64,000 nt of DNA, taken from contig OX597831.1 in the NCBI GenBank assembly GCA_951406725.2, forward strand, positions 22,320,001 through 22,384,000, in the 5' to 3' direction. Positions 3,079 through 52,846 of this stretch are shown one piece after another. Positions within the stretch are counted from its first letter, which is position 1. The number at the start of each line of letters is the position of its first letter. Origin of the DNA: Octopus vulgaris (Eukaryota). Below the pieces are notes generated by a model, which saw only the letters and a program-made list of their open reading frames with translations, was not told where the DNA came from and did not search any database. A program made the translations under genes and the position numbers.

Positions 3079-3904
3079 CAGAGACCAAGAGGTACAAAGA
3101 GACTAAGGGAAATATGGAGAGAAAAGAAGAAAAGAAATAAAAGAGAGAAGTAGAGAATTAGAAAAAAGAAGGGGAGAGAAAGTGAGGGTTAGAGCAGAAG
3201 TGAAGGAAAAGAGGCAGGCAGAAAGAGACACAAAGAAGAAGGTGTGAGATAGAATAAGAGGGAGAGACGACAGCGACAGAGAGACTAAGAGAGAGATGGA
3301 AGAAAGATAGGAGTGAAGAGAAATAAGAGAAAGAAGCTGAGAGTTAGAGAAAGAAAGGGGAAGAGTGGAAGTGAAGGGAAAGAGGGAGGGGAGAATGAGT
3401 AAGAGAGAAGGGGAAGACACAAAGGCCCGGGAACACGTGTTGAAGGTGGTGCGCTTACACTCCTTAAAATTTTTTAGCGGGTGCAAAATCGAAATTTGTA
3501 CTCCCTGCATACTTTGCTAGGTTTCGAAAATAGTGTCTAAAAGTTGATCAGCAAAACGTTACTTGAAGTTTGAATTCTTCTCAAAACATGAACAAAGGAC
3601 AGAACCAAATGAAATAATGTCGAAAATGTTTACTGATGAAGCTGGTCCTAAAATTACTAAAGGAATTCTCTAGAAAGATATACGACTAAACTAACGCATC
3701 GTCAACATCAAAATTAAAAGTACATACAGACAACATGGCAGCAGCAACGACAACAATATGACCAGCAGTATGGCCATTCCTCAAAACTAACGCAATTGAT
3801 GACTTATTAAACTTCACAATGAAAAACTCTTCACTGTCCAGCAATTCTTCATTTTCTCTAAATACTACAACTGACCTATCATCATCATCATCATTGCCAT
3901 ATTT

Positions 3905-4068: not shown

Positions 4069-5019
4069 GGGAAAGACAACAAAAATCACTACTACTGCCA
4101 CGCCTTTCTTCCCATTACTGTCCACCTCAATTTGATCATATACCTCACAGCTCCATGATAATTCTGCCAACTGTAAATATTACTATTTTCATTAAGTGGA
4201 TTTGTATTTAACAACTTATTATTATGTGAAGAGATGATTTGTGAAAAGCTTTTGGTGTTTGAAAACCATATCCTGATTCAGTGTAAATTAATAATTGAAT
4301 GAATTTCTTGGGAAATTGTTTTCTATAGCTCCACGAAACTGATAAGCGAACTTGGATTTGATCTGCTTACCATATGGAATTATCAAACTGTGTTTCTCTA
4401 GGACATACCTTGTTATTAGGGTAATTATCTTTTAAAGTCCTCTATGTACATTTATAACGAAAAAATGGGTCTTAAAGAACGGTTGTCTCCCTTACGATGC
4501 CGAATTACATTACTCGATTTAGTGTTGTTATTCGAACTAAAATTTATATTGTTAATATCGTTATGACTTAGAGGTATAATTAATGTCAGTAGGGTTGATA
4601 TAGGTAATTTATTTTCTTTATAGCCTGCTTTAAGTAAGGCAGCGTGATAAAATTCGGCTTTATCGTTGAAGATATCAACATTAGCAGATAATCTAAAAAG
4701 TTTAAGTGAAATATTCCGAACAAAACCCCTTGAATGATTACTGAAAAAGCTAATATATTTTAAATTAGTTGAGGATTTATGGCATGCGAAATATGAATCA
4801 TTATGTAAGTTAAGGGTAATATCCAAAAAGTTGGCTTTATTTATACCATCGTCAAAAACAATGCTTAAGCCCATGTTTCGGAAAAATTTAACCAACCTGT
4901 TTTTAACCCTTTGAAATTTTTGGTTAGAAGCATTTTGGATGTAAAGTAGACAATGATCACGATATAGACCTCCATTGATGTTTGTGAATTGGTCAGTCTT
5001 CTCACAAAGGATATATATA

Positions 5020-5285
5020 ATAAAAAAAGAAATAAATGCGCCCTTTTTAAAGCCTAGCCAGGCTCATGGGCCCGGTTTCCCGGTTTCTATGGCGTATGTG
5101 TCCCTCAGCTGGATGGGGCGCCAGTCCATTGCAGTGTTACTCATTTTTGCTAGCTGAGTGGACTAGAGCAACGTGAAATGAAGTGGTTTGCTCAAGAACA
5201 CAACGCGTCGCCCAGTCCAGGAATCGAAACCACGATCTTACGATCATGATGCTGACACCCTAACCACTAAGCCATGCGCCTCCAC
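5020..5285 (-). mobile_element. tRNA-derived SINE inserted in the PLE
   Basis: Head GTGGAGGCGCATGGCTTAGTGGTTAGG...GGTTTCGATTCC (A/B-box-like); flanking duplication of about ACAAAGGATATATATA. Confidence 0.8.
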
Positions 5286-5527
5286 AAAGGATATATATAC
5301 CGATCAAAACTGTCGGACGTATCTTTATGGACACACAGCTTGTTATCAAATTTAATAGATTTTCTGGCGGCTAACACGACATTAATTTCATCCCTGGTGA
5401 GACCTGCTCTGTTGTGTACGAGCCAGAGTGCCTTGTTGAGTACAAATTGGGTTGATAGAGGAACAAAAACTAGAAATGTCAAACTGGATAAACTTAGTGC
5501 ACTTCTTGTTATTAATAGAATTAAACC

Positions 5528-5917
5528 GTGGAGGCGCAATGGCCCAGTGGTTAGGGCAGCGGACTCGCGGTCAGAGGATCGCGGTTTCGATTCCCAGACC
5601 GGGCATTGTGAGTGTTTAATGAGCGAAGATACCTAAAGCTCCACGAAGCTCCGGCAGGGGGGGGGGGGTGAACCCTGCTGTACTCTTTCACCACAACTTT
5701 CTCTCGCTCTTTCTTCCTGTTTCTCTTGTACCTGTATTTCAAAGGGCCAGCCTTGTCACATTCTGTGTGTCACGCTGAATCTCCTCGAGAACTACGTTAA
5801 GGGTACACGTGTCTGTGGAGTGCTCAGCCACTTGCACGTTAATATCACGAGCAAGCTGTTCCGTTGATCGTATCAGCTGGGGCCCTCATCGTCGCAACCG
5901 TCGGAGTGCTCCTATAT
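5528..5917 (+). mobile_element. tRNA-derived SINE family B, full length
   Basis: A box TGGCCCAGTGG, B-box-like GGTTTCGATTCC; 13-bp TSD ATAGAATTAAACC at 5515-5527 and 5918-5930; near-identical copies at 39386 and 51178. Confidence 0.9.
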
Positions 5918-6497
5918 ATAGAATTAAACCAGTCGACCACTTGGAACGAATTAGACCATAAATTAAGCTTTAATTTATTAACTAAGGTAGGAATATATTT
6001 ATCTAGAATATTTTTGCTCAGAGCTAGAAGGACAAATGACTAAATTTAGTTCCTATTAGTGATTTATACCAGTCTATAAAATTCGACCTTTAACTGTCTT
6101 CTTACATTTCACTTCTACTAAATATATCTGCTTCCAAGCCTTTAATCTTAATTCCTATACACCTATCGCACTATATTTCTCCACTTTTAATTTCCTGCTG
6201 ATTTCTTTCTTTCCCCCTCCTTCTCTTTCTATAAATTGTCTTTACGTTATATCTATTAACTGCTTCTTTTTTTTTTAAATAACGCACTAGCGTCCCCTTC
6301 ATCAGACATACAGTAATCACATTCGGTTTTGTTTCTCTTTTTTTTTTCCTGATTAGAAGATTGCATTATTTTTCATCATTTTATTCCTTCAGGAATAATA
6401 CCAATATTTTCTTCCAAACATGTATCGGAAGTAAAAAGATTTGAATAACAGCTGCGTTTAACTCCATTTATATATACATACCTACATACACACACAC

Positions 6498-6659: not shown

Positions 6660-6700
<41 letters not shown>

Positions 6701-6707
<7 letters not shown>

Positions 6708-6816
6708 TCAATATAGGGTGGCAAAAAAAAAAAAAAATTTTTGTAGAATTCTTTTGCCACCAGCGGCCTAGTAGGAAAAAATTAAATAGTCATAGACCAT
6801 TTTTAAGTTTAACATC
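6701..6816 (-). repeat. Fragment (first ~115 nt) of the 495-nt retrozyme unit
   Basis: Matches 8596-8706; abuts (TA)n on the left and the LINE fragment on the right. Confidence 0.9.
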
Positions 6817-8080
6817 TTTGCAAAGGCCTTTGATAAAGTCGATCATGGAATGATATGTCACAAACTGCGTGATCTCAACATAGTTGGAAAACTGGGAGAA
6901 TGGCTTCATGACTTTCTGAAAGATAGAAGTCAGGTGGTAGTGGCCAATGGGGCCACTTCCATTAACACGCAAATAGTGAGCGGTGTTCCGCAGGGCACTG
7001 TTCTGGGACCACTACTGTTCATAATGGCCCTCTCAGACATGCCCTCAGCCACGCAGAGAGCCACGATCACAAGTTATGCAGATGATACAAAAGTTTCACA
7101 GGCAATACAGAACCCTAAGGACACTAAACACCTGCAATGTGAGCTAGACAAAATATACAAGTGGGCCGAAAAGAATAGCATGCAGTTCAATGCTGAAAAG
7201 TTTCAAGCTCTATACTATCAGCATGCAAAACTAAATGCAATACCCAATGAATACACTGGACCCGGAGGAATAGCAATCCCAGAGGCACAATCAGTGCGTG
7301 ACCTAGGTATTTACATGAGTGATGACGCGACCTTTCGTGTACATGTTGCTAAATTGGCAATGAAATGTAGACGACTGGCCGGATGGATCCTCAGAACCTT
7401 TAGAACAAGAGAACAAGAAACCATGATGGTCCTCTGGAGGACACTTGTCCTAAGCCACTTTGACTACTGCTCTCAGTTATGGTCACCATCCAGTGTCAAG
7501 TTGATCACAGAGCTCGAGGCGATCCAACGTAGCTACACGAAGAAGATAGCCTCTATGCAGAATGTAAGCTACTGGGAAAGACTCAGGAAATTAAAATTAT
7601 ATTCCCTGGAGCGTAGGCGGGAAAGATATGCCATAATATACATCTGGAAGATCCTGGAGGGAAGTGTCCTGAACTTTGGCATCGAGAGTTACGCAAATGC
7701 CAGAACTGGGCGCCACTGCGTGGTGCCTAGGACTCCAAACTTGCCATCAAGATGTAGGACAAGATTCTGTGATAGCCTGGGCTTCCGAGGCCCACAGCTC
7801 TTCAATATCCTCCCGAAGAACCTGAGAGACCTGCATGGGGTGGATACAGATGTCTTTAAAATGAAGCTGGATCTCTTCCTGTCAGGTGTCCCAGATGAAC
7901 CAACTTCACGGCAGGAGGGGCAGATGAGGGCAGCTGCATCGAACTCTCTCATGCACCAAATAGCAGCTGCTAGAAAGCCTTCATGAAGTGAAACCAAGTA
8001 GCAACACCAAATGGCGGTGCCCCAGCATGGCCACAGCTCATAAGCTGAAACTGGAAAAATCAAAATCAAAATCAAAATCA
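6816..8080 (+). mobile_element. CR1/L2-group LINE 3' fragment (RT C-terminal part, ORF 6850-7986); inverted copy of ~10733-11996
   Basis: FAKAFDKVDH, SGVPQGTVLGPLLF, YADDTK and YSLERRRERY motifs; (AAAATC)n tail; begins abruptly mid-RT. Confidence 0.92.
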
Positions 8081-8159
8081 TATATGTATATGTATTTATG
8101 TGTGCATATGTGTGTGTGTGTTTATGTATACGTATGTATATACATATATAAATAAATAA

Positions 8160-8211
<52 letters not shown>

Positions 8212-8331
8212 ACAATCAAGGAACGGCCATAATAGGCCATTCACCCACTAGAAATAACAGCCAAAGCTTCAACCGCAAATAAAAGTTAATTCTGTAAACC
8301 AGGAGAAAATTTAAAAAACATTTACCCTGTA

Positions 8332-8438
8332 ATTTCTTATACGATATACCGTTTCATCTGCTGATTAATGGTAAACTAACCTGATTAAATTAAATCAAGC
8401 CAATCTTCCACAGGCCCTCAGATTCATCAGTAAGAAAT
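8332..8438 (-). ncRNA. Type I hammerhead ribozyme
   Basis: Reverse complement of the motif at 9399-9505. Confidence 0.9.
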
Positions 8439-8827
8439 AGCCCAAGTCGGAACAGATATTTTCACGAGGCATTTCCGACCTTGCCAAGTTTATATCTGAC
8501 CTAAAATTTTCAAATCGTCGCACTCGCGCCAAATTTATCGGCAGCAAATAAATATAAGCCGTCGATTCCATTACGGAATTAACCAGAAAATTCATAATTA
8601 ATCAATATAGGGTGGCAAAAAAAAAAAATTTTGTAGAATTCTTTTGCCACCAGCGGCCTAGTAGGAAAAAATTAAATAGTCATAGACCATTTTTAAGTTT
8701 AACATCAACAATCAAGGAACGGCCATAATAGGCCATTCACCCACTAGAAATAACAGCCAAAGCTTCAACCGCAAATAAAAGTTAATTCTGTAAACCAGGA
8801 GAAAATTTAAAAAACATTTACCCTGTA

Positions 8828-8934
8828 ATTTCTTATACGATATACCGTTTCATCTGCTGATTAATGGTAAACTAACCTGATTAAATTAAATCAAGCCAAT
8901 CTTCCACAGGCCCTCAGATTCATCAGTAAGAAAT
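8828..8934 (-). ncRNA. Type I hammerhead ribozyme
   Basis: Reverse complement of the motif at 9399-9505. Confidence 0.9.
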
Positions 8935-9398
8935 AGCCCAAGTCGGAACAGATATTTTCACGAGGCATTTCCGACCTTGCCAAGTTTATATCTGACCTAA
9001 AATTTTCAAATCGTCGCACTCGCGCCAAATTTATCGGCAGCAAATAAATATAAGCGGTTATTTGCGGTTGAAGCTTTGGCTGTTATTTCTAGTGGGTGAA
9101 TGGCCTATTATGGCCGTTCCTTGATTGTTGATGTTAAACTTAAAAATGGTCTATGACTATTTAATTTTTTCCTACTAGGCCGCTGGTGGCAAAAGAATTC
9201 TACAAAATTTTTTTTTTTTTGCCACCCTATATTGATTAATTATGAATTTTCTGGTTAATTCCGTAATGGAATCGACGGCTTATATTTATTTGCTGCCGAT
9301 AAATTTGGCGCGAGTGCGACGATTTGAAAATTTTAGGTCAGATATAAACTTGGCAAGGTCGGAAATGCCTCGTGAAAATATCTGTTCCGACTTGGGCT

Positions 9399-9505
9399 AT
9401 TTCTTACTGATGAATCTGAGGGCCTGTGGAAGATTGGCTTGATTTAATTTAATCAGGTTAGTTTACCATTAATCAGCAGATGAAACGGTATATCGTATAA
9501 GAAAT
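9399..9505 (+). ncRNA. Type I hammerhead ribozyme, predicted cleavage after GUA (9497)
   Basis: Stem I AUUUCUUA/UAAGAAAU; core CUGAUGA (9407-9413); stem II AUCUG/CAGAU with a long internal hairpin; GAAA (9482-9485); self-complementary stem III ACGGUAUAUCGU. Confidence 0.92.
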
Positions 9506-9893
9506 TACAGGGTAAATGTTTTTTAAATTTTCTCCTGGTTTACAGAATTAACTTTTATTTGCGGTTGAAGCTTTGGCTGTTATTTCTAGTGGGTGAATGG
9601 CCTATTATGGCCGTTCCTTGATTGTTGATGTTAAACTTAAAAATGGTCTATGACTATTTAATTTTTTCCTACTAGGCCGCTGGTGGCAAAAGAATTCTAC
9701 AAAATTTTTTTTTTTGCCACCCTATATTGATTAATTATGAATTTTCTGGTTAATTCCGTAATGGAATCGACGGCTTATATTTATTTGCTGCCGATAAATT
9801 TGGCGCGAGTGCGACGATTTGAAAATTTTAGGTCAGATATAAACTTGGCAAGGTCGGAAATGCCTCGTGAAAATATCTGTTCCGACTTGGGCT

Positions 9894-10000
9894 ATTTCTT
9901 ACTGATGAATCTGAGGGCCTGTGGAAGATTGGCTTGATTTAATTTAATCAGGTTAGTTTACCATTAATCAGCAGATGAAACGGTATATCGTATAAGAAAT
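9894..10000 (+). ncRNA. Type I hammerhead ribozyme, predicted cleavage after 9992
   Basis: Same motif as 9399-9505. Confidence 0.92.
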
Positions 10001-10385
10001 TACAGGGTAAATGTTTTTTAAATTTTCTCCTGGTTTACAGAATTAACTTTTATTTGCGGTTGAAGCTTTGGCTGTTATTTCTAGTGGGTGAATGGCCTAT
10101 TATGGCCGTTCCTTGATTGTTGATGTTAAACTTAAAAATGGTCTATGACTATTTAATTTTTTCCTACTAGGCCGCTGGTGGCAAAAGAATTCTACAAAAT
10201 TTTTTTTGCCACCCTATATTGATTAATTATGAATTTTCTGGTTAATTCCGTAATGGAATCGACGGCTTATATTTATTTGCTGCCGATAAATTTGGCGCGA
10301 GTGCGACGATTTGAAAATTTTAGGTCAGATATAAACTTGGCAAGGTCGGAAATGCCTCGTGAAAATATCTGTTCCGACTTGGGAT

Positions 10386-10492
10386 ATTTCTTACTGATGA
10401 ATCTGAGGGCCTGTGGAAGATTGGCTTGATTTAATTTAATCAGGTTAGTTTACCATTAATCAGCAGATGAAACGGTATATCGTATAAGAAAT
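10386..10492 (+). ncRNA. Type I hammerhead ribozyme, predicted cleavage after 10484
   Basis: Same motif as 9399-9505. Confidence 0.92.
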
Positions 10493-10612
10493 TACAGGGT
10501 AAATGTTTTTTAAATTTTCTCCTGGTTTACAGAATTAACTTTTATTTGCGGTTGAAGCTTTGGCTGTTATTTCTAGTGGGTGAATGGCCTATTATGGCCG
10601 TTCCTTGATTGT

Positions 10613-10652
<40 letters not shown>

Positions 10653-10732
10653 TTATTTATTTATATATGTATATACATACGTATACATAAACACACACAC
10701 ACATATGCACACATAAATTCATATACATATAT

Positions 10733-12947
10733 GATTTTGATTTTGATTTTGATTTTTCCAGTTTCAGCTTATGAGCTGTGGACATGCTGGGGCACCGCCA
10801 TTTGGTGTTGCTACTTGGTTTCACTTCATGAAGGCTTTCTAGCAGCTGCTATTTGGTGCATGAGAGAGTTCGATGCAGCTGCCCTCATCTGCCCCTCCTG
10901 CCGTGAAGTTGGTTCATCTGGGACACCTGACAGGAAGAGATCCAGCTTCATTTTAAAGACATCTGTATCCACCCCATGCAGGTCTCTCAGGTTCTTCGGG
11001 AGGATATTGAAGAGCTGTGGGCCTCGGAAGCCCAGGCTATCACAGAATCTTGTCCTACATCTTGATGGCAAGTTTGGAGTCCTAGGCACCACGCAGTGGC
11101 GCCCAGTTCTGGCATTTGCGTAACTCTCGATGCCAAAGTTCAGGACACTTCCCTCCAGGATCTTCCAGATGTATATTATGGCATATCTTTCCCGCCTACG
11201 CTCCAGGGAATATAATTTTAATTTCCTGAGTCTTTCCCAGTAGCTTACATTCTGCATAGAGGCTATCTTCTTCGTGTAGCTACGTTGGATCGCCTCGAGC
11301 TCTGTGATCAACTTGACACTGGATGGTGACCATAACTGAGAGCAGTAGTCAAAGTGGCTTAGGACAAGTGTCCTCCAGAGGACCATCATGGTTTCTTGTT
11401 CTCTTGTTCTAAAGGTTCTGAGGATCCATCCGGCCAGTCGTCTACATTTCATTGCCAATTTAGCAACATGTACACGAAAGGTCGCGTCATCACTCATGTA
11501 AATACCTAGGTCACGCACTGATTGTGCCTCTGGGATTGCTATTCCTCCGGGTCCAGTGTATTCATTGGGTATTGCATTTAGTTTTGCATGCTGATAGTAT
11601 AGAGCTTGAAACTTTTCAGCATTGAACTGCATGCTATTCTTTTCGGCCCACTTGTATATTTTGTCTAGCTCACATTGCAGGTGTTTAGTGTCCTTAGGGT
11701 TCTGTATTGCCTGTGAAACTTTTGTATCATCTGCATAACTTGTGATCGTGGCTCTCTGCGTGGCTGAGGGCATGTCTGAGAGGGCCATTATGAACAGTAG
11801 TGGTCCCAGAACAGTGCCCTGCGGAACACCGCTCACTATTTGCGTGTTAATGGAAGTGGCCCCATTGGCCACTACCACCTGACTTCTATCTTTCAGAAAG
11901 TCATGAAGCCATTCTCCCAGTTTTCCAACTATGTTGAGATTACGCAGTTTGTGACATATCATTCCATGATCGACTTTATCAAAGGCCTTTGCAAAGTCGA
12001 GATATATCACTTCCACATTTGAGTGGTTGAGCAGCCGTTTCAGCACCCAGTCATAGTGTTGTAGCAGCTGAGTTAAACAGCTTCTCCCTGGTCGGAAACC
12101 ATGTTGGGTGTCGGGCAGCAAGTCATTTTCTTCAAGGAAGGTGATCAGCTTCCTTCTGACTATTCGTTCCATGACCTTGCTGATGTGTGAGGTCAGAGAG
12201 ATAGGTCTATAGTTCTTGGCTTCCGCTCTGCTACCTCCTTTATGAATGGGGCATATTTTACCTTCCTTCAGTTTTCTTGGAAGTTTGCCAGCTGCAAGGA
12301 AGCTCTGAAAGAGGAACTGCAGTGGTCTTGCTAGGGCTCTCTTACATGCTTTTAGGAGGATTGCCGGGAATCCATCGGGGCCAGTAGCTGAGTCTGTTTT
12401 CATTTCATCTATAGCCTTGATTACATCGTCTTCCTTTATATCGATGTAATCTATCGTCGCCGCCTCTGATTTTATATCTGCAGTGGTAAAAAAGTCAGTT
12501 GGATTGGTGATTTGGAGATGCCCAAGGGGTGGAGTGAAACACTCTTGAATTGCTCATTCAGTATTTCACTTACCCTCATTGGTTTTCCTGTAAGTGTGCC
12601 ATCCTTTTCGAGGAGTGGCCCTATTCTACAGTGCACCGTAGCTGTTTCTTTGGCATACCTGTAGAAAGCTCTGGGGTTAGATTTTATGTTGTCTATAGCC
12701 CAGGCTTCTTTGTCTGCTCTTTCCTTTTCATGGGAGAGTTTCAGACATTTTTCGATTTCCAACAGTTTTATTTTTAGGCGGGACTTTTCACTGCTTTCAA
12801 TCTGTTTGTTTAGGCGATTTGAAAATTTTGTACGCCGTCTCATTAGAATTTTCCTCTCTCTGGGGATTTTGTTCTTGTGTACAGTGGCCTTTCTCTCTGG
12901 GACATATTTGTAGCATATGGCTTGCATTACAGACATGAATTGTTGAA
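10733..12947 (-). mobile_element. CR1/L2-group LINE, 5'-truncated (ORF2 pieces 12472-12936 and 10826-12403 separated by a frameshift)
   Basis: GPDGFP, NYRPISLTS, QHGFRPGRSC, YLDFAKAFD, GVPQG and YADD RT motifs; IKSNPRAFYRY upstream; (AAAATC)n tail. Confidence 0.93.
10826..12403 (-). CDS. LINE reverse transcriptase domain ORF (525 aa, part of a broken ORF2)
   Basis: Full set of non-LTR RT motifs in one frame; no endonuclease domain in the window. Confidence 0.75.
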   Translation of the reverse strand: MKTDSATGPDGFPAILLKACKRALARPLQFLFQSFLAAGKLPRKLKEGKICPIHKGGSRAEAKNYRPISLTSHISKVMERIVRRKLITFLEENDLLPDTQHGFRPGRSCLTQLLQHYDWVLKRLLNHSNVEVIYLDFAKAFDKVDHGMICHKLRNLNIVGKLGEWLHDFLKDRSQVVVANGATSINTQIVSGVPQGTVLGPLLFIMALSDMPSATQRATITSYADDTKVSQAIQNPKDTKHLQCELDKIYKWAEKNSMQFNAEKFQALYYQHAKLNAIPNEYTGPGGIAIPEAQSVRDLGIYMSDDATFRVHVAKLAMKCRRLAGWILRTFRTREQETMMVLWRTLVLSHFDYCSQLWSPSSVKLITELEAIQRSYTKKIASMQNVSYWERLRKLKLYSLERRRERYAIIYIWKILEGSVLNFGIESYANARTGRHCVVPRTPNLPSRCRTRFCDSLGFRGPQLFNILPKNLRDLHGVDTDVFKMKLDLFLSGVPDEPTSRQEGQMRAAASNSLMHQIAAARKPS

Positions 12948-12949
12948 GT

Positions 12950-13155
12950 TTCTTTTATTCTTTTATCTGTTTCAGTCATTTGACTGCGACCATGCTGGAG
13001 CACCGCCTTTAGTCGAACAAATCAACCCGAGAACTTATTCTTTGTAAGCCTAGCACTTCTTCTATTGTTTACTTTTGCTGAATCGCTAAATCACGGGGAT
13101 GTAAACACACCACCATCGGTTGTCAAGCGATGGTGGAGAGAAAAACACAGACACA

Positions 13156-30272: not shown

Positions 30273-30286
30273 GTGTATATATATAT

Positions 30287-30767
30287 GATTTTGATTTTGA
30301 TTTTGATTTTTGATTTTTCCAGTTTCAGCTAATGAGCTGTGGCCATGCTGGGGCACCGCCATTTGGTTTGCTACACGATTTTACCTCATGGATGCTTTTT
30401 AGCAAACGCCATCTGATGCATGAGAGAGTTCGATACAGCTGCCCTCATCTGCACCTCCTGCCGTGAAGTTGGTTCATCCGGGACACCTGACAGGAAGAGA
30501 TCCAGTCCTACTTTAAAGACATCCGCATCTACACCATGCAGGTCCCTCAGGTTCTTCGGGAGGATATTGAAGAGCCGTACGCCTCTGAAGCCCAGGCTAT
30601 CACAATATCTTGTCCTACATCTTGATGGCAAATTTGGAGTCCTTGGTACTACGCAGTGGCGTCCGGTTCTGGCATTTGTGTGACTCTCGATGCCAAAGTC
30701 TGGGACAAGACCTTCCAGGATCTTCCAGATATATATTATGGCATATCTTTCTCGCCTACGCTCCAGG

Positions 30768-30770
<3 letters not shown>
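30287..30770 (-). mobile_element. CR1/L2-group LINE 3' fragment, same family as 10733-12947
   Basis: YSLERRRERYAIIYIWKILEG...GVPDEP motifs; (AAAATC)n tail. Confidence 0.92.
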
Positions 30771-30827
<57 letters not shown>

Positions 30828-39214: not shown

Positions 39215-39385
39215 TATCAATACACACACACATATACACACAATTAAATATGTGATATGGGAATAAGAATTTGTTGAGCTTCATGATGACAATTTTTTAT
39301 TCCCTTGTCATTTATTTAATTTCTCATTACTTCTCTGTACTCAATTGACCTTTTGTTCTGAAGCACATATATATATATAGATAGA

Positions 39386-39766
39386 AGCACTCCGTCGGTT
39401 ACGACGACGAGGGTTCCGGTTGATCCGAATCAACGGAACAGCCTGCTCGTGAAATTAACGTGTAAGTGGCTGAGCACTCCATAGACACGTGTACCCTTAA
39501 CGTAGTTCTCGGGGATATTCAGCGTGACACAGAGAGTGACAAGGCCGGCCCTTTGAAATACAGGTACAACAGAAACAGGAAGTAAGAGTGAGAGAAAGTT
39601 GTGGTGAAAGAGTACAGCAGGGATCACCACCATCCCCTGCCGGAGCCTCGTGGAGCTTTAGGTGTTTTCGCTCAATAAACACTCACAACGCCCGGTCTGG
39701 GAATCGAAACCGCGATCCTATGACCGCGAGTCCGCTGCCCTAACCACTGGGCCATTGCGCCTCCAC
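39386..39766 (-). mobile_element. SINE family B, full length
   Basis: Reverse-complement match to 5528-5917. Confidence 0.9.
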
Positions 39767-39837
39767 GTACATATATATATATATTACCAGCACAATGACA
39801 CAGTCATCTCCGACTGTTCAGTCCTTGCCAAATCTGA

Positions 39838-40275
39838 ATATATTTATACAGACATGAACGAGTAAGTAGTTATATCCATTGGACCACATGCTAAAGCTAC
39901 AACATAAAGACTGGCAAGAAATGGTATTAACATGTTCCAAACAGACATGTGCCAAACAAGGTACATGACAACGGCCAAGTCAAAATTATCTGGGATTTGT
40001 CTTTCCAAGCTGACAAAGAAATAAAAGATGATCGACCAGATGTAAAAACCAAGGGTTGGGGGGAAAAAGCACCTGCTTGCTAATAGACATTACAGTTCCT
40101 TCTGGCGAAAATATTGTTCAAAAAGAAGTGGAGAAATTGTTAAAGTACAAAGACCTCGACATTGATGTTTTCAAGACGTAGGACATACAGGTGAAAACAA
40201 TATCAGTAATAACTGTAGCATTATGCGTGATAAAAAATAAGGCCTATGAACAAATACGCAGGAGCTATAATTGGA
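39838..40275 (+). pseudogene. R4/Dong-like LINE restriction-like endonuclease relic
   Basis: WDLSFQADKEIKDDRPDV...CLLIDITVP..NIVQKEVEKLLKYKDL (PD...D/E..K..KY). Confidence 0.8.
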
Positions 40276-41126
40276 AAATATTCGTCAAACGACAATCGAA
40301 CTGGCAGAGTAAACAGAATGCTCCTACACTGCCACAGAGAAGCATCTTCACTCGATGGGAAAGGTTCAGAAGTATGGAGCATGGGTTCCGCATGCTTTAA
40401 ACAAAAATCAACGAGCCACAATCTCCGCTTGTTTGTTTGCTCGACACCACTCAACTCATTGACACAAGCAACGATTTCTCTTTCTCTACCGAATCGTTAC
40501 TGGCGACGAAAAATGGTGCTTGTACATCAATATGAAGCAGCGTAAGAATGGCTTAGCCACGGTTAACAAGCAACACCGCGCGTGAAACAAGATCTTCATC
40601 CGCGTAAAACGATGTTGTGCGTATGGTGGGAATTGCTTGAACGGAACCAAACGGTCAACGCGGAACTCAATGTTCAATAGATGGAACGACTCAACACGGC
40701 TATTCAAGAGAAAAGACCTAATCGGCAGTATGGAGTTTTTCTGCTGCACGACAACGCCCACCCTCATATCGCCAATATGACCAAAGAAGCCATTCAAAGG
40801 TATGGCTGGGAAGTGCTGCCACACCCACCGTACTCTCCTGATTTGGCACCAATGGATTTCCGCCTCTTTTGATCTCTTTCAAATGCTATGCTTGGAGTTT
40901 CGTTCAATACTGATGCAGAATTGAGAGCTTGGTTGGATCAATTTTTCGAGTCGAAATCGGCTGATTTCTACCAACGAGGTATTGAAAATCTTGTTAAACG
41001 TTGGGAAGAAGTTGTAAACAACAAGGGTGAATACATTATTGATTAATAAGTTGTTATTTTTTGTATTAAACCTTTAAAAAATTTAAATTAAAAAAAAAAC
41101 GGTGGGTATTAGTTGCCAACCTAATA
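40276..41126 (+). mobile_element. Degenerate mariner (DD34D) transposon, 3' part with right TIR
   Basis: RIVTGDEKW, LHPRKTMLCVWW, LHDNAHPH and HPPYSPDLAPMDF motifs; ends ...TTAGTTGCCAACCTAA-TA. Confidence 0.88.
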
Positions 41127-43632: not shown

Positions 43633-43688
43633 ACCAAATATATAATACCTTTTATATATTTATACATTTATATACATTTATATATTTT

Positions 43689-44149
43689 CTCTGCCAGTTC
43701 TATTGTCGTTTGACGAGAATTTTCCAATTATAGCTCCTGCGTTTTTGTTCATAGGCCTTATTTTTTATCACGCATAATGCTACAGTTATTATTGATATTG
43801 TTTTCACCTGTATGTCCTACGTCTTGAAAACATCAATGTCGAGGTCTTTGTATTTTAACAATTTCTCCACTTCTTTTTGAACAATATTTTCGCCAGAAGG
43901 AACTGTAATGTCTTTTAGCAAGCAGGTGTTTTTTTTTCCAACCCTTGGTTATTACATCTGGTCGATCATCTTTTATTTCTTTGTCACCTTGGAAAAACAA
44001 ATCCCAGATAATTTTGGCTTGGTCGTTGTCATGTTTGGCACATGTCTGTTTGGAACATGTTAATACCATTTCTTGCCAGTTATGTTGCAGCTTTAGCATG
44101 TGATCCAGTGGATATAACTACTAACTCGTTCATGTCTGTATAAATATAT
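43689..44149 (-). repeat. Inverted duplicate of ~39838-40309 (R4-like relic plus mariner junction)
   Basis: Colinear reverse-complement match with scattered substitutions and small indels. Confidence 0.85.
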
Positions 44150-47327: not shown

Positions 47328-47983
47328 CCAATTGACTGGCCCCCTCCCCCATAATTTTGGGCCTTGTGCCTAGAGTTGACAAGAATACAACAACCAACGT
47401 ACTTATTAAACCCAGTCATCTCTTAGTACTTTAAAGCTTTACAGCACAAGGTTATGAAGGGAAACTTTTTAGTCGCTCGATCTACTAAAAATAGCGGACA
47501 AATTTTCCTTAGATCACATCGTGCTGTCATATAAAATATGCATTTGATAATGCTGTCCTAGATCAGTCGACAATTGCTATCCCTCTGCTTTGGACGGTAA
47601 ATGCCGAAGAGGTTTGGTGCGTTTTGGGTGTTCAGAAAAGAACATGAGATTTTCTCTTACAAATAATATATGAAAACCGCTTCAAGCGGTGAGCTGATAG
47701 AATTGTTAGGGTATCGGGTTGAAATGCTGCCGACGTTGGCGTCAATTGGCTTTCATCCTTTCGGGGTCGATAAAATAAATTACCTGTTGAACACAGGTGT
47801 CGATTTAATCGATTCAGCACCTGCCCTGAAATTTTTTGCCTTGTGATAAAAATTTGATACCAATACGTCGAAACCAGGTACAATACATATTAAATTAAAC
47901 ACATTTTCCAAAAATCTTTGCTAGCAAGAACACAGTGTTTTAAGGAGCAAAAACATTATTCATGATGTATCAAAGACCCCACC

Positions 47984-48391
47984 AATAGGATTTCGTTAGT
48001 CCTTGCCTTCTTTAATATAAGACAATATGGATAATGAAGCAGTGTGCAAAATTGTTTGATTAAAATATCTTTTATCCTGAGTTTTCTTTTCTTTGCCAAC
48101 GTGCGGTGGGGTTGCTTGCAAAATGTCAATCGGTGAAAAATAAAGCGAAAATATACGCTGAGCTACTGAAAAATGAGTAAGCTTATATCCTAGATACGCA
48201 ATCTGAAAAGTAAAAGATGGAATAGTCACGAGTGGAACGCCCTAAATTAAAAAGCGGAAAAAATCTCTTCTAGATACAGTCTGAAAAAATAAAAGATAAC
48301 ATGGTCACGACTGGAACGCCTTTAATCAAAATATGGAGAAATACTGTCCAAGATATATAATTTGAAATATAGGTGGATTAGTTACGGTTGG
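47984..48391. repeat. ~410-bp direct repeat, copy 1 (copy 2 at ~51844-52252)
   Basis: AATAGGATTTCGTTAGTCCTTGC...GGATTAGTTACGGTTGGA nearly identical in both. Confidence 0.9.
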
Positions 48392-48866
48392 ATCCCCCTT
48401 CGATCGACGTCTGATCTGGGGCTAGCTAAATAAAGACAGCAGCAACAACAACAAGCATAATGACATGACGTCATACGAATGAATGCACCGCTTCTAGGGG
48501 AAATGTTGACGAAGATACACAATTAATTGGAGCTTGATATAACATTACAATGATAATATTGTTGTTGCTTAATAAATTATTTGCTTTCAACGCGGCTACG
48601 ATTCTCACTTACTATTTAGATCTGATCATGTTACACGAAACACAATAAACTTATCATATTGTCTTTCTGTCTGTCTGTCTCTCTCCCTCTCTTCTGCTTC
48701 GAACAGTTATTTGGTTTGAGGCTAAAAGAAAATGGCTGCAGCGTATTTCTTTTGTACGCCATTGTGAAGAGTTACACATTTTAACAATCGACTAAATATT
48801 ATATACATTTTTAAATATAATTAATTAGTAGATATTGTTATTGTTGTTGCCGAAGAATAGCAGCGG

Positions 48867-50599: not shown

Positions 50600-51760
50600 A
50601 TTTTTCATCAACAGCTTCAACAAATAAATTTATCACATATTTTCCTTCATTGTTCACGGCTTCTTGCCAACGTACCACTGTCTTGTCACTGCCCAAATCG
50701 TAGAAATCACTTGGTCTTGACTCGAAAAATTGATCGATCCACCTTTTCAGCTGCCCATTGTTGTTAAATGAAATGCCTCGCAGACTGTTGGAAAGAGACC
50801 AAAAAGTGATAATCTGAGGGCGCTGTACCAAGAGAATACGGTGAGGGCGGTTAAACTGTCCAACTGAACTCTTAAATAATATTTTGATCAATTAACAACG
50901 TGTAGTAGGACGAGTGTTGTCGCGTTGAACAAGCACTCAGCGTCGCTGGTCGGTTCGTTTCCGTTAGATTGCATCGTTGAGCCGGAACATTTAATCAATG
51001 TAATGCGCTACATTGAACGCGTGGTTGTATCCAAACATTTTGTAGTAGATTAGCCCTTCTCAGTCCCATCAAATGCAGATCATTGTCTTGTGTGAATGCA
51101 GATCTAGCTTGGCTCGAGATGTTGTTTTGCTGGTCAGTATTCCGCCGTTCTTTCCTCTGCTTGATATTGACGTAAAGTGGAGGCGCAATGGCCCAGTGGT
51201 TAGGGCAGCGGACTCGCGGTCGTAGGATCGCGGTTTCGATTCCCAGACCGGGCGTTGTGAGTGTTTATTGAGTGAAAACACCTAAAGCTCCACGAGGCTC
51301 CAGCAGGGGATGGTGGTGATCCCTGCTGTACTCTTTCACCACAACTTTCTCTCACTCTTACTTCCTGTTTCTGTTGTACCTGTATTTCAAAGGGCCGGCC
51401 TTGTCACACTCTGTGTCACGCTGAATATCCCCGAGAACTACGTTTAAGGGTACACGTGTCTGTGGAGTGCTCAGCCACTTGCATGTTAATTTCACGAGCA
51501 GGCTGTTCTGTTGAACGTATCAGCTGGGACCCTCGTCGTCGTAACCGACGTATTGCTCCTATTGACGTAAAGACACCAGATTTTTTTTATCGCCGGTGAT
51601 CATACGGTAAAGAAATATTTGTGTCAACGAATAACCGAGCAAAAAACTGGTAGAAGGACAAAGAAATTGGTAGCAAAGGAACTCGTAGAAGGGCGCTGGG
51701 GTTTGTATCTTTCGTTTCGAGTACATGTCTCACATGCATCAGGTTTTTAGAGCTCACTCA
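50600..51760 (-). pseudogene. Decayed mariner transposase interrupted by a SINE
   Basis: ITGDKK(I)WCLYVN, LHSHKTMICI*WD and WSLSNSLRGISFNN...WIDQFFESRPSDFY; homologous to 40276-41126. Confidence 0.75.
51178..51559 (+). mobile_element. SINE family B, full length
   Basis: 13-bp TSD TATTGACGTAAAG at 51165-51177 and 51560-51572. Confidence 0.92.
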
Positions 51761-51843
51761 TCGAGTGAAGGTGACGGGCAACAGCATCATAATGCATCTC
51801 ATCTGTTTGGTAAATTCCTAAGGACTGTATCAAGGACTCCACT

Positions 51844-52252
51844 AATAGGATTTCGTTAGTCCTTGCTTTCTTTAATATAAGACAATATGGATAATGAAGC
51901 AGTGTGCAAAATTGTTTGATTAGAATATCTTTAATCCTGAGTTTTCTTTTCTTTGCCAACGTGCGGTGGGGGTTGCTTGCAAAATGTCAATCGGTGAAAA
52001 ATAAAGCGAAAATATACGCCGAGCTACTGAAAAATGAGTAAGCTTATATCCTAGATACGCAATCTGAAAAGTAAAAGATGGAATAGTCACGAGTGGAACG
52101 CCCTAAATTAAAGAGTGGGGAAAGTCTCTTCTAGATACAGTCTGAAAAAATAAAAGATAACATGGTTACGACTGGAACGCCTTTAATCAAAATATGGAGA
52201 AATACTGTCCAAGATATATAATTTGAAATATAGGTGGATTAGTTACGGTTGG
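51844..52252. repeat. ~410-bp direct repeat, copy 2
   Basis: Match to 47984-48391. Confidence 0.9.
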
Positions 52253-52846
52253 AGCAGATGCTCGTGGATGAACTAGTTTGATCACTTCTTATTGAACTGA
52301 AAAAAAATTCGCCAGAACGTCGATTGTCTGTGAGGTTGAATTTCCTCTCCTTGGAGTACGAAAGTGTCTCGATCGATTTTGGCAGCTTTGGAATTTTGAA
52401 TGAAGACGAAGGAAAGCAGGTGTCAAAAAAATGTTAATTCTGTTTGTTTGTGTTCTACTTGGCACTCGATCGTCACATGTCTGGTAAAAAAAAAAAAGAA
52501 GGTAAAATTAATTCAAACTTCAAAAACGATAAACAAAAGTTGTGGAGAATAGTTACAAGAAGAGCTGTAATGCATTGCGATAAAAATAATTCTTGAGTTA
52601 TTTCAGATAACATAGGAAAGAAACAAGTTCACGTGACAATGCCATATGTATATATATATATATATATATATATCGGCCGACGCAGGCGATAGCTTTTTAA
52701 AGGCGGTGCTCCAGCATGGCCGCAGTCAAAATGACTGAAACAAGTAAAAGAATAGAATAAAAGAATAAAGAATATATATGTGTGTGTGTGTGTGCCTGTG
52801 TATGTGTGTGCCTGTGTGTGTGCGTGTGTGTGCGTGTGTATATGTG

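Follow-up and report, generated by a model that had tools for sequence, protein, structure and literature searches.

The window, i.e. the whole 64-kb stretch of octopus DNA that was analysed, contains at 6660–10650 an insertion built from a 495-nt unit and lying in a (TA)n microsatellite. Unit positions are numbered from 9498, the first base past a predicted ribozyme cut, and the cleavage-to-cleavage monomer at 9498–9992 (plus strand, 495 nt) serves as the reference. The true left end of the insertion is a (TA)n target at 6660–6702, which is followed by a short arm A at 6700–6816 (minus strand; unit 130–241), the outer end of which is site A against (TA)n and the inner end site B. The segment at 6816–8207 (plus strand) is an inverted duplicate of the right-hand host flank, with a LINE 3′ part, the LINE tail and microsatellites, and it is joined to an inverted arm at 8208–9058 (minus strand; unit 273–495, 1–495 and 1–132), which we interpret as copied from the B arm by fold-back. 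Arm B itself spans 9058–10616 (plus strand; 3.2 tandem units, from unit 58 to unit 132), and its outer end is site B against the right-hand (TA)n target at 10617–10650. A native host LINE copy with an RVT_1 domain and a hexamer tail is located at 10732–12954 (minus strand). In the reference unit, site B (9587–9629, plus strand) consists of a hairpin and then CCTTGATTGTTGAT, and forms a family end point at unit ~132. The tail between the two end points measures 109 nt (9630–9738, plus strand), contains a hairpin (9682–9721, plus strand) and then CCTATATTGATTAATTAT, and ends at site A, at unit ~241 (9738).

TRF reported the 495-nt unit 3.2 times at 9058–10616 with copies 99% identical, in agreement with the near-identical ~495-nt unit of the preliminary description of this DNA. 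The single tandem array drawn there over 8208–10616 holds for 9058–10616, whereas 8208–9058 turned out to be inverted, with the unit on the minus strand, and mapping gave three full and four partial units instead of the four full and two partial ones claimed. Both array ends run into (TA)n and both read GTTGAT, as described. The short arm at 6700–6816 and a 1,382-bp inverted flank duplication (6816–8197 versus 10615–11996) were absent from that description.

The CUGAUGA...GAAA...GUA motif of the type I hammerhead was found five times, three on the plus strand (9399–9505, 9894–10000 and 10386–10492, with predicted cuts after GUA at 9497, after 9992 and after 10484) and two on the minus strand (8332–8438 and 8828–8934, with predicted cuts after 8340 and 8836). 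Consecutive units, at least two in succession, carry an intact motif. The number of hammerheads, their parts (8-bp stem I, stem II and a short stem III) and the cuts predicted after 9497 and 9992 were as previously reported. In the hammerhead at 9399–9505 (plus strand), stem I is formed by 9399–9406 and 9498–9505, CUGAUGA lies at 9407–9413, stem II is long, and stem III contains the near-palindromic CGGUAUAUCG. The fold had a z of −2.8 to −3.4, and the centroid structure showed the 8-bp stem I and a stem II lengthened by a ~60-nt hairpin. Folding of stem III, 3 bp as read from the sequence, was weak in the single molecule (−1.2 kcal/mol) and strong in the dimer (−10.2 kcal/mol), a behaviour that according to the accessible text of PMC4209133 is known for animal type I hammerheads. 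When 12 selected variants, drawn from the present family and from a sister family, were aligned, 95.8% of cells paired, against 29–47% in slid controls, and 6 pairs were altered on both sides in a compensatory manner, a count that represents few events because the 12 rows are related. The Rfam check that had been suggested for the hammerhead gave no match at the gathering score over the 64-kb window, and no Rfam hammerhead model matched 8150–10700 at E ≤ 10. The miss is probably due to the long stem II; Rfam overlooks a form of the hammerhead that is present thousands of times in one genome. A possible decayed hammerhead is found at 3625–3685 (plus strand; GTTTA-CTGATGA...GAAA...GAC-TAAAC), the cut triplet being replaced by GAC.

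A DNA search of the genome with the unit gave 1,120 candidates, 40 of which were scored and found to be 98–100% identical. The hammerhead 3′ motif occurred exactly 2,474 times genome-wide and 0 times in the reversed control. Many contigs carry copies, in the form of short arrays with fixed ends, and at 72/84 loci the copies consist of unit-only arms bounded by (TA)4+ at both outer ends. The GC content of the arms is 0.35, and there is no ORF of at least 100 aa inside them. The insertion at 6660–10650 has no ORF for an RT and GIY-YIG between pseudo-LTRs, as an autonomous Penelope-like element (PLE) would; it has the inverted truncated copy, the tail at one end and the microsatellite target of a non-autonomous PLE. 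We class the family as a non-LTR retrozyme, i.e. a probable non-autonomous, non-coding PLE derivative. These results bear out the earlier view of a hammerhead repeat of the animal retrozyme type that is young, non-coding and multi-copy, and its mobilization into (TA)n by PLE machinery is supported by the PLE-type form of the insertion and its (TA)n outer ends. The earlier concern that the unit might be just the pLTR of an autonomous PLE with fixed ends was justified as regards the fixed ends, but no ORF is attached. We found no published description of this family in the accessible literature, Repbase/Dfam and subscription papers aside, and the accessible parts of PMC6962438 and PMC10886601 contain nothing on it.

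Arm ends were scored in two sets of loci. Set 1 comprised the 40 scored loci from the DNA search, taken without regard to ends; set 2 was selected on A ends and comprised 40 of the first 42 of these on contig C1 (two were already in set 1), with 87–100% identity. The insertion at 6660–10650 was scored by its outermost ends. The results showed that the outer ends of the arms lie in (TA)n at unit ~241 (A) or ~132 (B): of 142 arm ends, 76 were at 234–246, 59 at 124–137 and 11 elsewhere (A/B/other: 36/34/5 in set 1 and 40/25/6 in set 2). Genome-wide, there were 808 exact junctions of site A and 231 of site B with (TA)n, and 0 in either reversed control. Both sites are preceded by a hairpin and an AU-rich stretch resembling CCT..ATTG.T. 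Head-to-head insertions accounted for 59/80 loci, the other 21 having a single arm or another form. Their pairing was A+B in 54/59 and A with an odd or out-of-range end in 5/59, and neither A+A nor B+B occurred among them; in set 1 alone the figure was 29/30 A+B (chance 0.5^29). The array ends had been taken as a sign of circular permutation by rolling reverse transcription, an argument that is not supported; random permutation of the ends is rejected, since the outer ends cluster at two fixed sites and are not random. Fixed outer ends are also found in PLE pseudo-LTRs with a tail and are thus uninformative about a circle. The idea that site B blocks arm A as a general rule, for which set 1 gave 6/25 A-arm inner ends piled at that site, was unconfirmed in set 2 (p 0.58) and was dropped. 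At L064:805–3081, a 2.3-kb palindrome (97%) adjoins a family insertion with a LINE-broken B arm.

Inner arm ends were analysed in set 2 after exclusion of four complex loci, i.e. at 36 of its 40 loci. They fell at positions 484–30 in 12/36 A arms (rate ratio 5.2, p 3e-5) and 7/25 B arms (rate ratio 3.1, p 0.017), the p values being somewhat generous since this range was picked after set 1 had been seen. Stops at the cut site tended to coincide in the two arms of a locus (6/2/1/11, Fisher p 0.004). The simplest reading of these positions is that the reverse transcriptase would have run off a ribozyme-made 5′ end, and the enrichment at the cut would then constitute a statistical genomic trace of ribozyme cleavage in vivo.

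The sister family has a 475-nt unit about 70% identical to the present one and yielded 1,830 candidates; in examples such as L106:2438–2896, L183 and L188, stem III is perfectly palindromic (CGATGCATCG). Its 15 distinct two-arm loci (30 fetched) had one A-type and one B-type end each, the B end of L179 lying about 20 nt early, and L168 and L169 may represent one duplicated event. The window also contains a decayed PLE reverse transcriptase fragment with a GLYRD motif at 4200–5063 (minus strand), which is related to thousands of loci, and some of its relatives have open frames of 700–830 codons of the Hydra type. A search with 4455–4976 of this fragment gave 7,372 candidates, of which 150 were scored and 20 long-ORF loci fetched. 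The protein of the latter, P0001, has the RW, DKT, CxxC and CxH motifs and lacks CCHH, a combination given as diagnostic of Hydra in the accessible text of PMC8557442; Pfam provided no name for the fragment at 4200–5063 or for P0001. The hammerheads of the long-ORF PLEs have a long stem II as in the 495-nt family, and their arms end 48–61 or 195–220 nt past the cut. Of the 20 loci fetched, 12 had an inverted arm; 11 of these were A+B, L143 being off-site. No PLE pseudo-LTR resembling the 495-nt unit was detected by BLAST (0 matches in 50 PLE loci, of 7,372 candidates), a sample small enough for one to have been missed. We infer that the family is most likely mobilized in trans by a partner element of the Hydra clade. 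As far as the PMC8557442 supplement is accessible, Hydra-1_Obim and three octopus Naiads all prefer (TA)n, and the shared target of the Naiads counts against a Hydra partner; Hydra is nevertheless the likelier of the two because Naiads lack canonical hammerheads according to the accessible text of the same paper. Seven loci (L147, L148, L149, L150, L151, L155 and L158) belong to a very young Hydra-like family of 778 aa with copies 99% alike, in which the hammerhead core is CCGAAGA instead of CUGANGA.

Judged from these genomic patterns, the family is probably a non-autonomous PLE derivative, mobilized by Hydra, in which each DNA end primes at its own site. The PLE protein would cut both strands within (TA)n, and reverse transcription would then be primed by one DNA end at site A (unit 241) and by its counterpart at site B (unit 132), on the same RNA or on two copies from one source, and the two cDNAs would grow towards each other and be joined head to head. 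The ribozyme would make the 5′ end of many templates, with the consequence that arms often stop at the cut, and multi-unit arms would derive from circles or partly uncut multimers. There is about an even chance of a broader rule, namely that PLEs insert by programmed twin priming and that small ribozyme-made circles, carrying only the ribozyme and two sites, exploit it. If true, a single ribonucleoprotein assigns a separate RNA start site to either end of the cut DNA, which would explain the inverted arm and the one-sided tail together, and the family would provide a minimal substrate of 495 nt whose genomic products number in the thousands. In L1 twin priming, two target ends prime on one RNA, giving an inverted junction, and the second site is a chance internal match, whereas the octopus sites are both fixed and are conserved across families.

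The two arms could also originate from one priming event, the cDNA folding back, being copied outward and being ended at the other site by an endonuclease or a stop signal; self-priming and EN-mediated resolution have been proposed for PLEs (PMC3846280 and PMC8557442, accessible parts). Were the first cDNA the template of the second arm, B should not exceed A − 109 nt, or A should not exceed B − 386 nt. Out of 50 clean A+B loci, 37 fit one order (28 the first and 9 the second), and 12 were near-symmetric, which fits a hairpin as well as two cDNAs running off one RNA end. The remaining 13 fit neither order, 8 of them missing the limit by 80 nt or more, although trimming at the junction could rescue fold-back for these loci. 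The two arms of a locus are usually of one haplotype, private variants included; L196 is an exception, its arms differing at three sites. Since 13/50 loci fit neither order and the arms share a haplotype, we favour a separate priming event at each DNA end, fold-back being confined to a minority of loci. As the general route, fold-back appears unlikely: it must explain why the copy ends at B if primed at A and at A if primed at B, and the evident fold-back at 6660–10650, the one locus (1/84) where it is needed to account for a flank duplication, ran through site B into the flank without stopping.

At that locus, the right flank copy is the native one, because the LINE runs on past 11996, and the duplicate at 6816–8207 has 3 substitutions relative to it (flank identity 99.8%). 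The inverted copy of the outer B arm and of 1.4 kb of flank is best explained by fold-back of the B cDNA, which would have been copied outward through the flank and then joined to the A arm at 6700–6816, itself stopped at site B after about 110 nt; the junction between the fold-back copy and the A arm has about 1 nt of homology. The 99.8% identity of the flanks, and the fact that such a palindrome was seen in 1/84 loci, would also be compatible with the 5.2-kb palindrome of this locus being an assembly artefact. We regard this as very unlikely, since the 4 substitutions between its two sides are what a genuine duplication of recent date would show, since repeat lengths differ between them as well, and since the left end bears exactly the A arm predicted by the family rule; if it were an artefact, the family-wide findings would be unaffected. 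Inverted flank duplication was rejected as a family trait, as 9/84 loci had some inverted flank match and the match abuts both arms only here.

Rolling reverse transcription of a ~495-nt circle, as suggested in the preliminary description, agrees with the uniformity of the arrays for private variants, but the argument made from the array ends fails and ordered mosaics partly contradict it. In 26 multi-unit loci with 97 full units, 11 locus-private variants were fixed in all units at 8 loci (up to 9/9 units), 8 private variants occurred in some units and 29 in single units. Fixation across all units favours repeated copying of one monomer, and the ordered mosaics suggest multimeric templates, local duplication or assembly effects. 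A circular RNA step thus appears plausible, with somewhat better than even prospects. Its rival, in which older arrays are transcribed into linear, partly uncut multimers that give rise to the multi-unit arms without circular RNA, is possible and less probable. It would fit the stops at the cut on later passes (2/10 A arms; L050, L057, L058 and L067), the identical unit order of L038 and L039 at position 131, the period-3 variants in L035, L065, L193 and L195, and the contigs and one spliced product that read through an uncut ribozyme, contigs being unable to tell a circle from tandem read-through. Linear copying alone is, however, unable to lengthen arrays or to spread a new variant to all units, and the nearest unit was found within the same locus for 66/97 units (23 ties); the 11 fixed variants likewise speak against it, unless they were carried by unsampled parents. 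The period-3 patterns could also be local duplications, and local amplification at the DNA level has been proposed for retrozymes in the accessible text of bioRxiv 10.64898/2026.07.22.740005, which reports cleavage in only 1/9 tested dimers. That the family as a whole is a satellite or left-over pseudo-LTR amplified locally by unequal crossover, with an irrelevant hammerhead, is hardly credible when short arrays with fixed ends are scattered over many contigs, the hammerhead fold is kept across families with compensatory changes, and arm stops are enriched at the cut site. L038 and L039 share a variant that recurs every 5 units, for which, as for the period-3 variants, multimeric circles, local duplication or assembly are possible origins.

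The unit was found in 20 runs from 9 studies, none of them recorded as RNA; the runs examined further consist of contigs, and some of them are RNA by predicted run type. In three presumed-RNA runs, A>G accounted for 29/54, 21/45 and 11/15 change places on the sense strand, and the contigs had loose ends where nearly every A reads G; in the large run X15 the figure was 8/29. Editing of A to G in the RNA of the unit is likely from these read differences. One X3 contig joins the unit after 9511, at a 5′ splice donor (CAGG|GTAAAT, 9508–9517, plus strand), to a host exon at L190:1447–1526 (minus strand). Past 9511, the contig continues in sequence occurring once in the genome, and the exon has a pyrimidine tract and AG ahead of it and GTAAGT behind it, which points to a spliced sense transcript of the family. 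The donor is kept in the sister family; no family copy that could have donated it was found in about 18 kb upstream of the exon. A second contig of this kind leaves the unit at 9512.

Like the animal non-LTR retrozymes described in the accessible text of PMC7229834 and bioRxiv 10.64898/2026.07.22.740005, the octopus family is AT-rich and non-coding, with a single type I hammerhead in every tandem unit, and has a palindromic stem III, thousands of copies and a proposed dependence on PLEs. It differs in the ~60-nt extension of stem II and in the form of most of its insertions, which comprise two arms of opposite orientation, their ends fixed, paired and located in (TA)n; neither the arms nor such ends are described in that text. 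Circular RNA has been demonstrated for coral, mussel and axolotl retrozymes, and would be a plausible step in the octopus family. The monomer, which the preliminary description considered unusually long, does exceed the circles of 170–400 nt given in the former source, but lies within the 51–972 bp given for retrozymes as PLE derivatives in the latter. Opposite-strand hammerhead pairs 100–700 bp apart have been noted (PMC4209133, accessible part).

Inverted arms and a one-sided tail are already known as marks of PLEs, inverted copies with a tail often at one end only being described in the accessible sections of PMC8557442 and PMC3846280. With the EN+ PLEs of the Hydra clade treated there, the family shares the inverted 5′-truncated copy, the tail at one end, the canonical hammerhead and (TA)n, and with the Hydra-like elements of the octopus genome also the long stem II and A+B ends; it differs by lacking an ORF and in that its DNA resembled none of the 50 PLE loci compared. 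The tail measures 109 nt here and about 150 nt in the ORF-bearing elements, as compared with the 30–40 bp described in the same sections. For PAc (Poseidon of Anolis), the accessible text of PMC11167929 reports a protein that cuts and extends both strands and starts at two RNA-internal sites bounding the tail, and predicts a dimer, features that match our model. It states that the start site was alike on both strands, which counts against site-per-end priming, and that cleavage was not needed in vitro. No assignment of sites to ends and no reads ending at the ribozyme cut are reported in that text, whereas the octopus family has paired sites and arm ends enriched at the cut. We found no statement of strict A+B pairing in the accessible papers. 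What is new is that two fixed start sites are strictly paired, across three element groups within one genome, together with the putative trace of cleavage. In their accessible parts, PMC8557442 states the origin of inverted PLE insertions with a one-sided tail to be open, and PMC7761336 the priming route of animal retrozymes to be unknown. The octopus family links both questions, showing the PLE insertion signature without an ORF and with two exact start sites, and offers a short, testable substrate for PLE insertion and retrozyme priming.

Other repeats were observed in the window. A second 3′ fragment of the LINE at 10732–12954 (88% identical) lies at 30276–30774, and a 428-bp direct repeat (97%) with a 79-bp tandem pair inside is found at 47966–48392 and 51826–52253. 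Young, SINE-like interspersed repeats, 91–95% alike, are located at 5527–5920, 39376–39767 and 51177–51562, and at 39838–40313 and 43685–44149.
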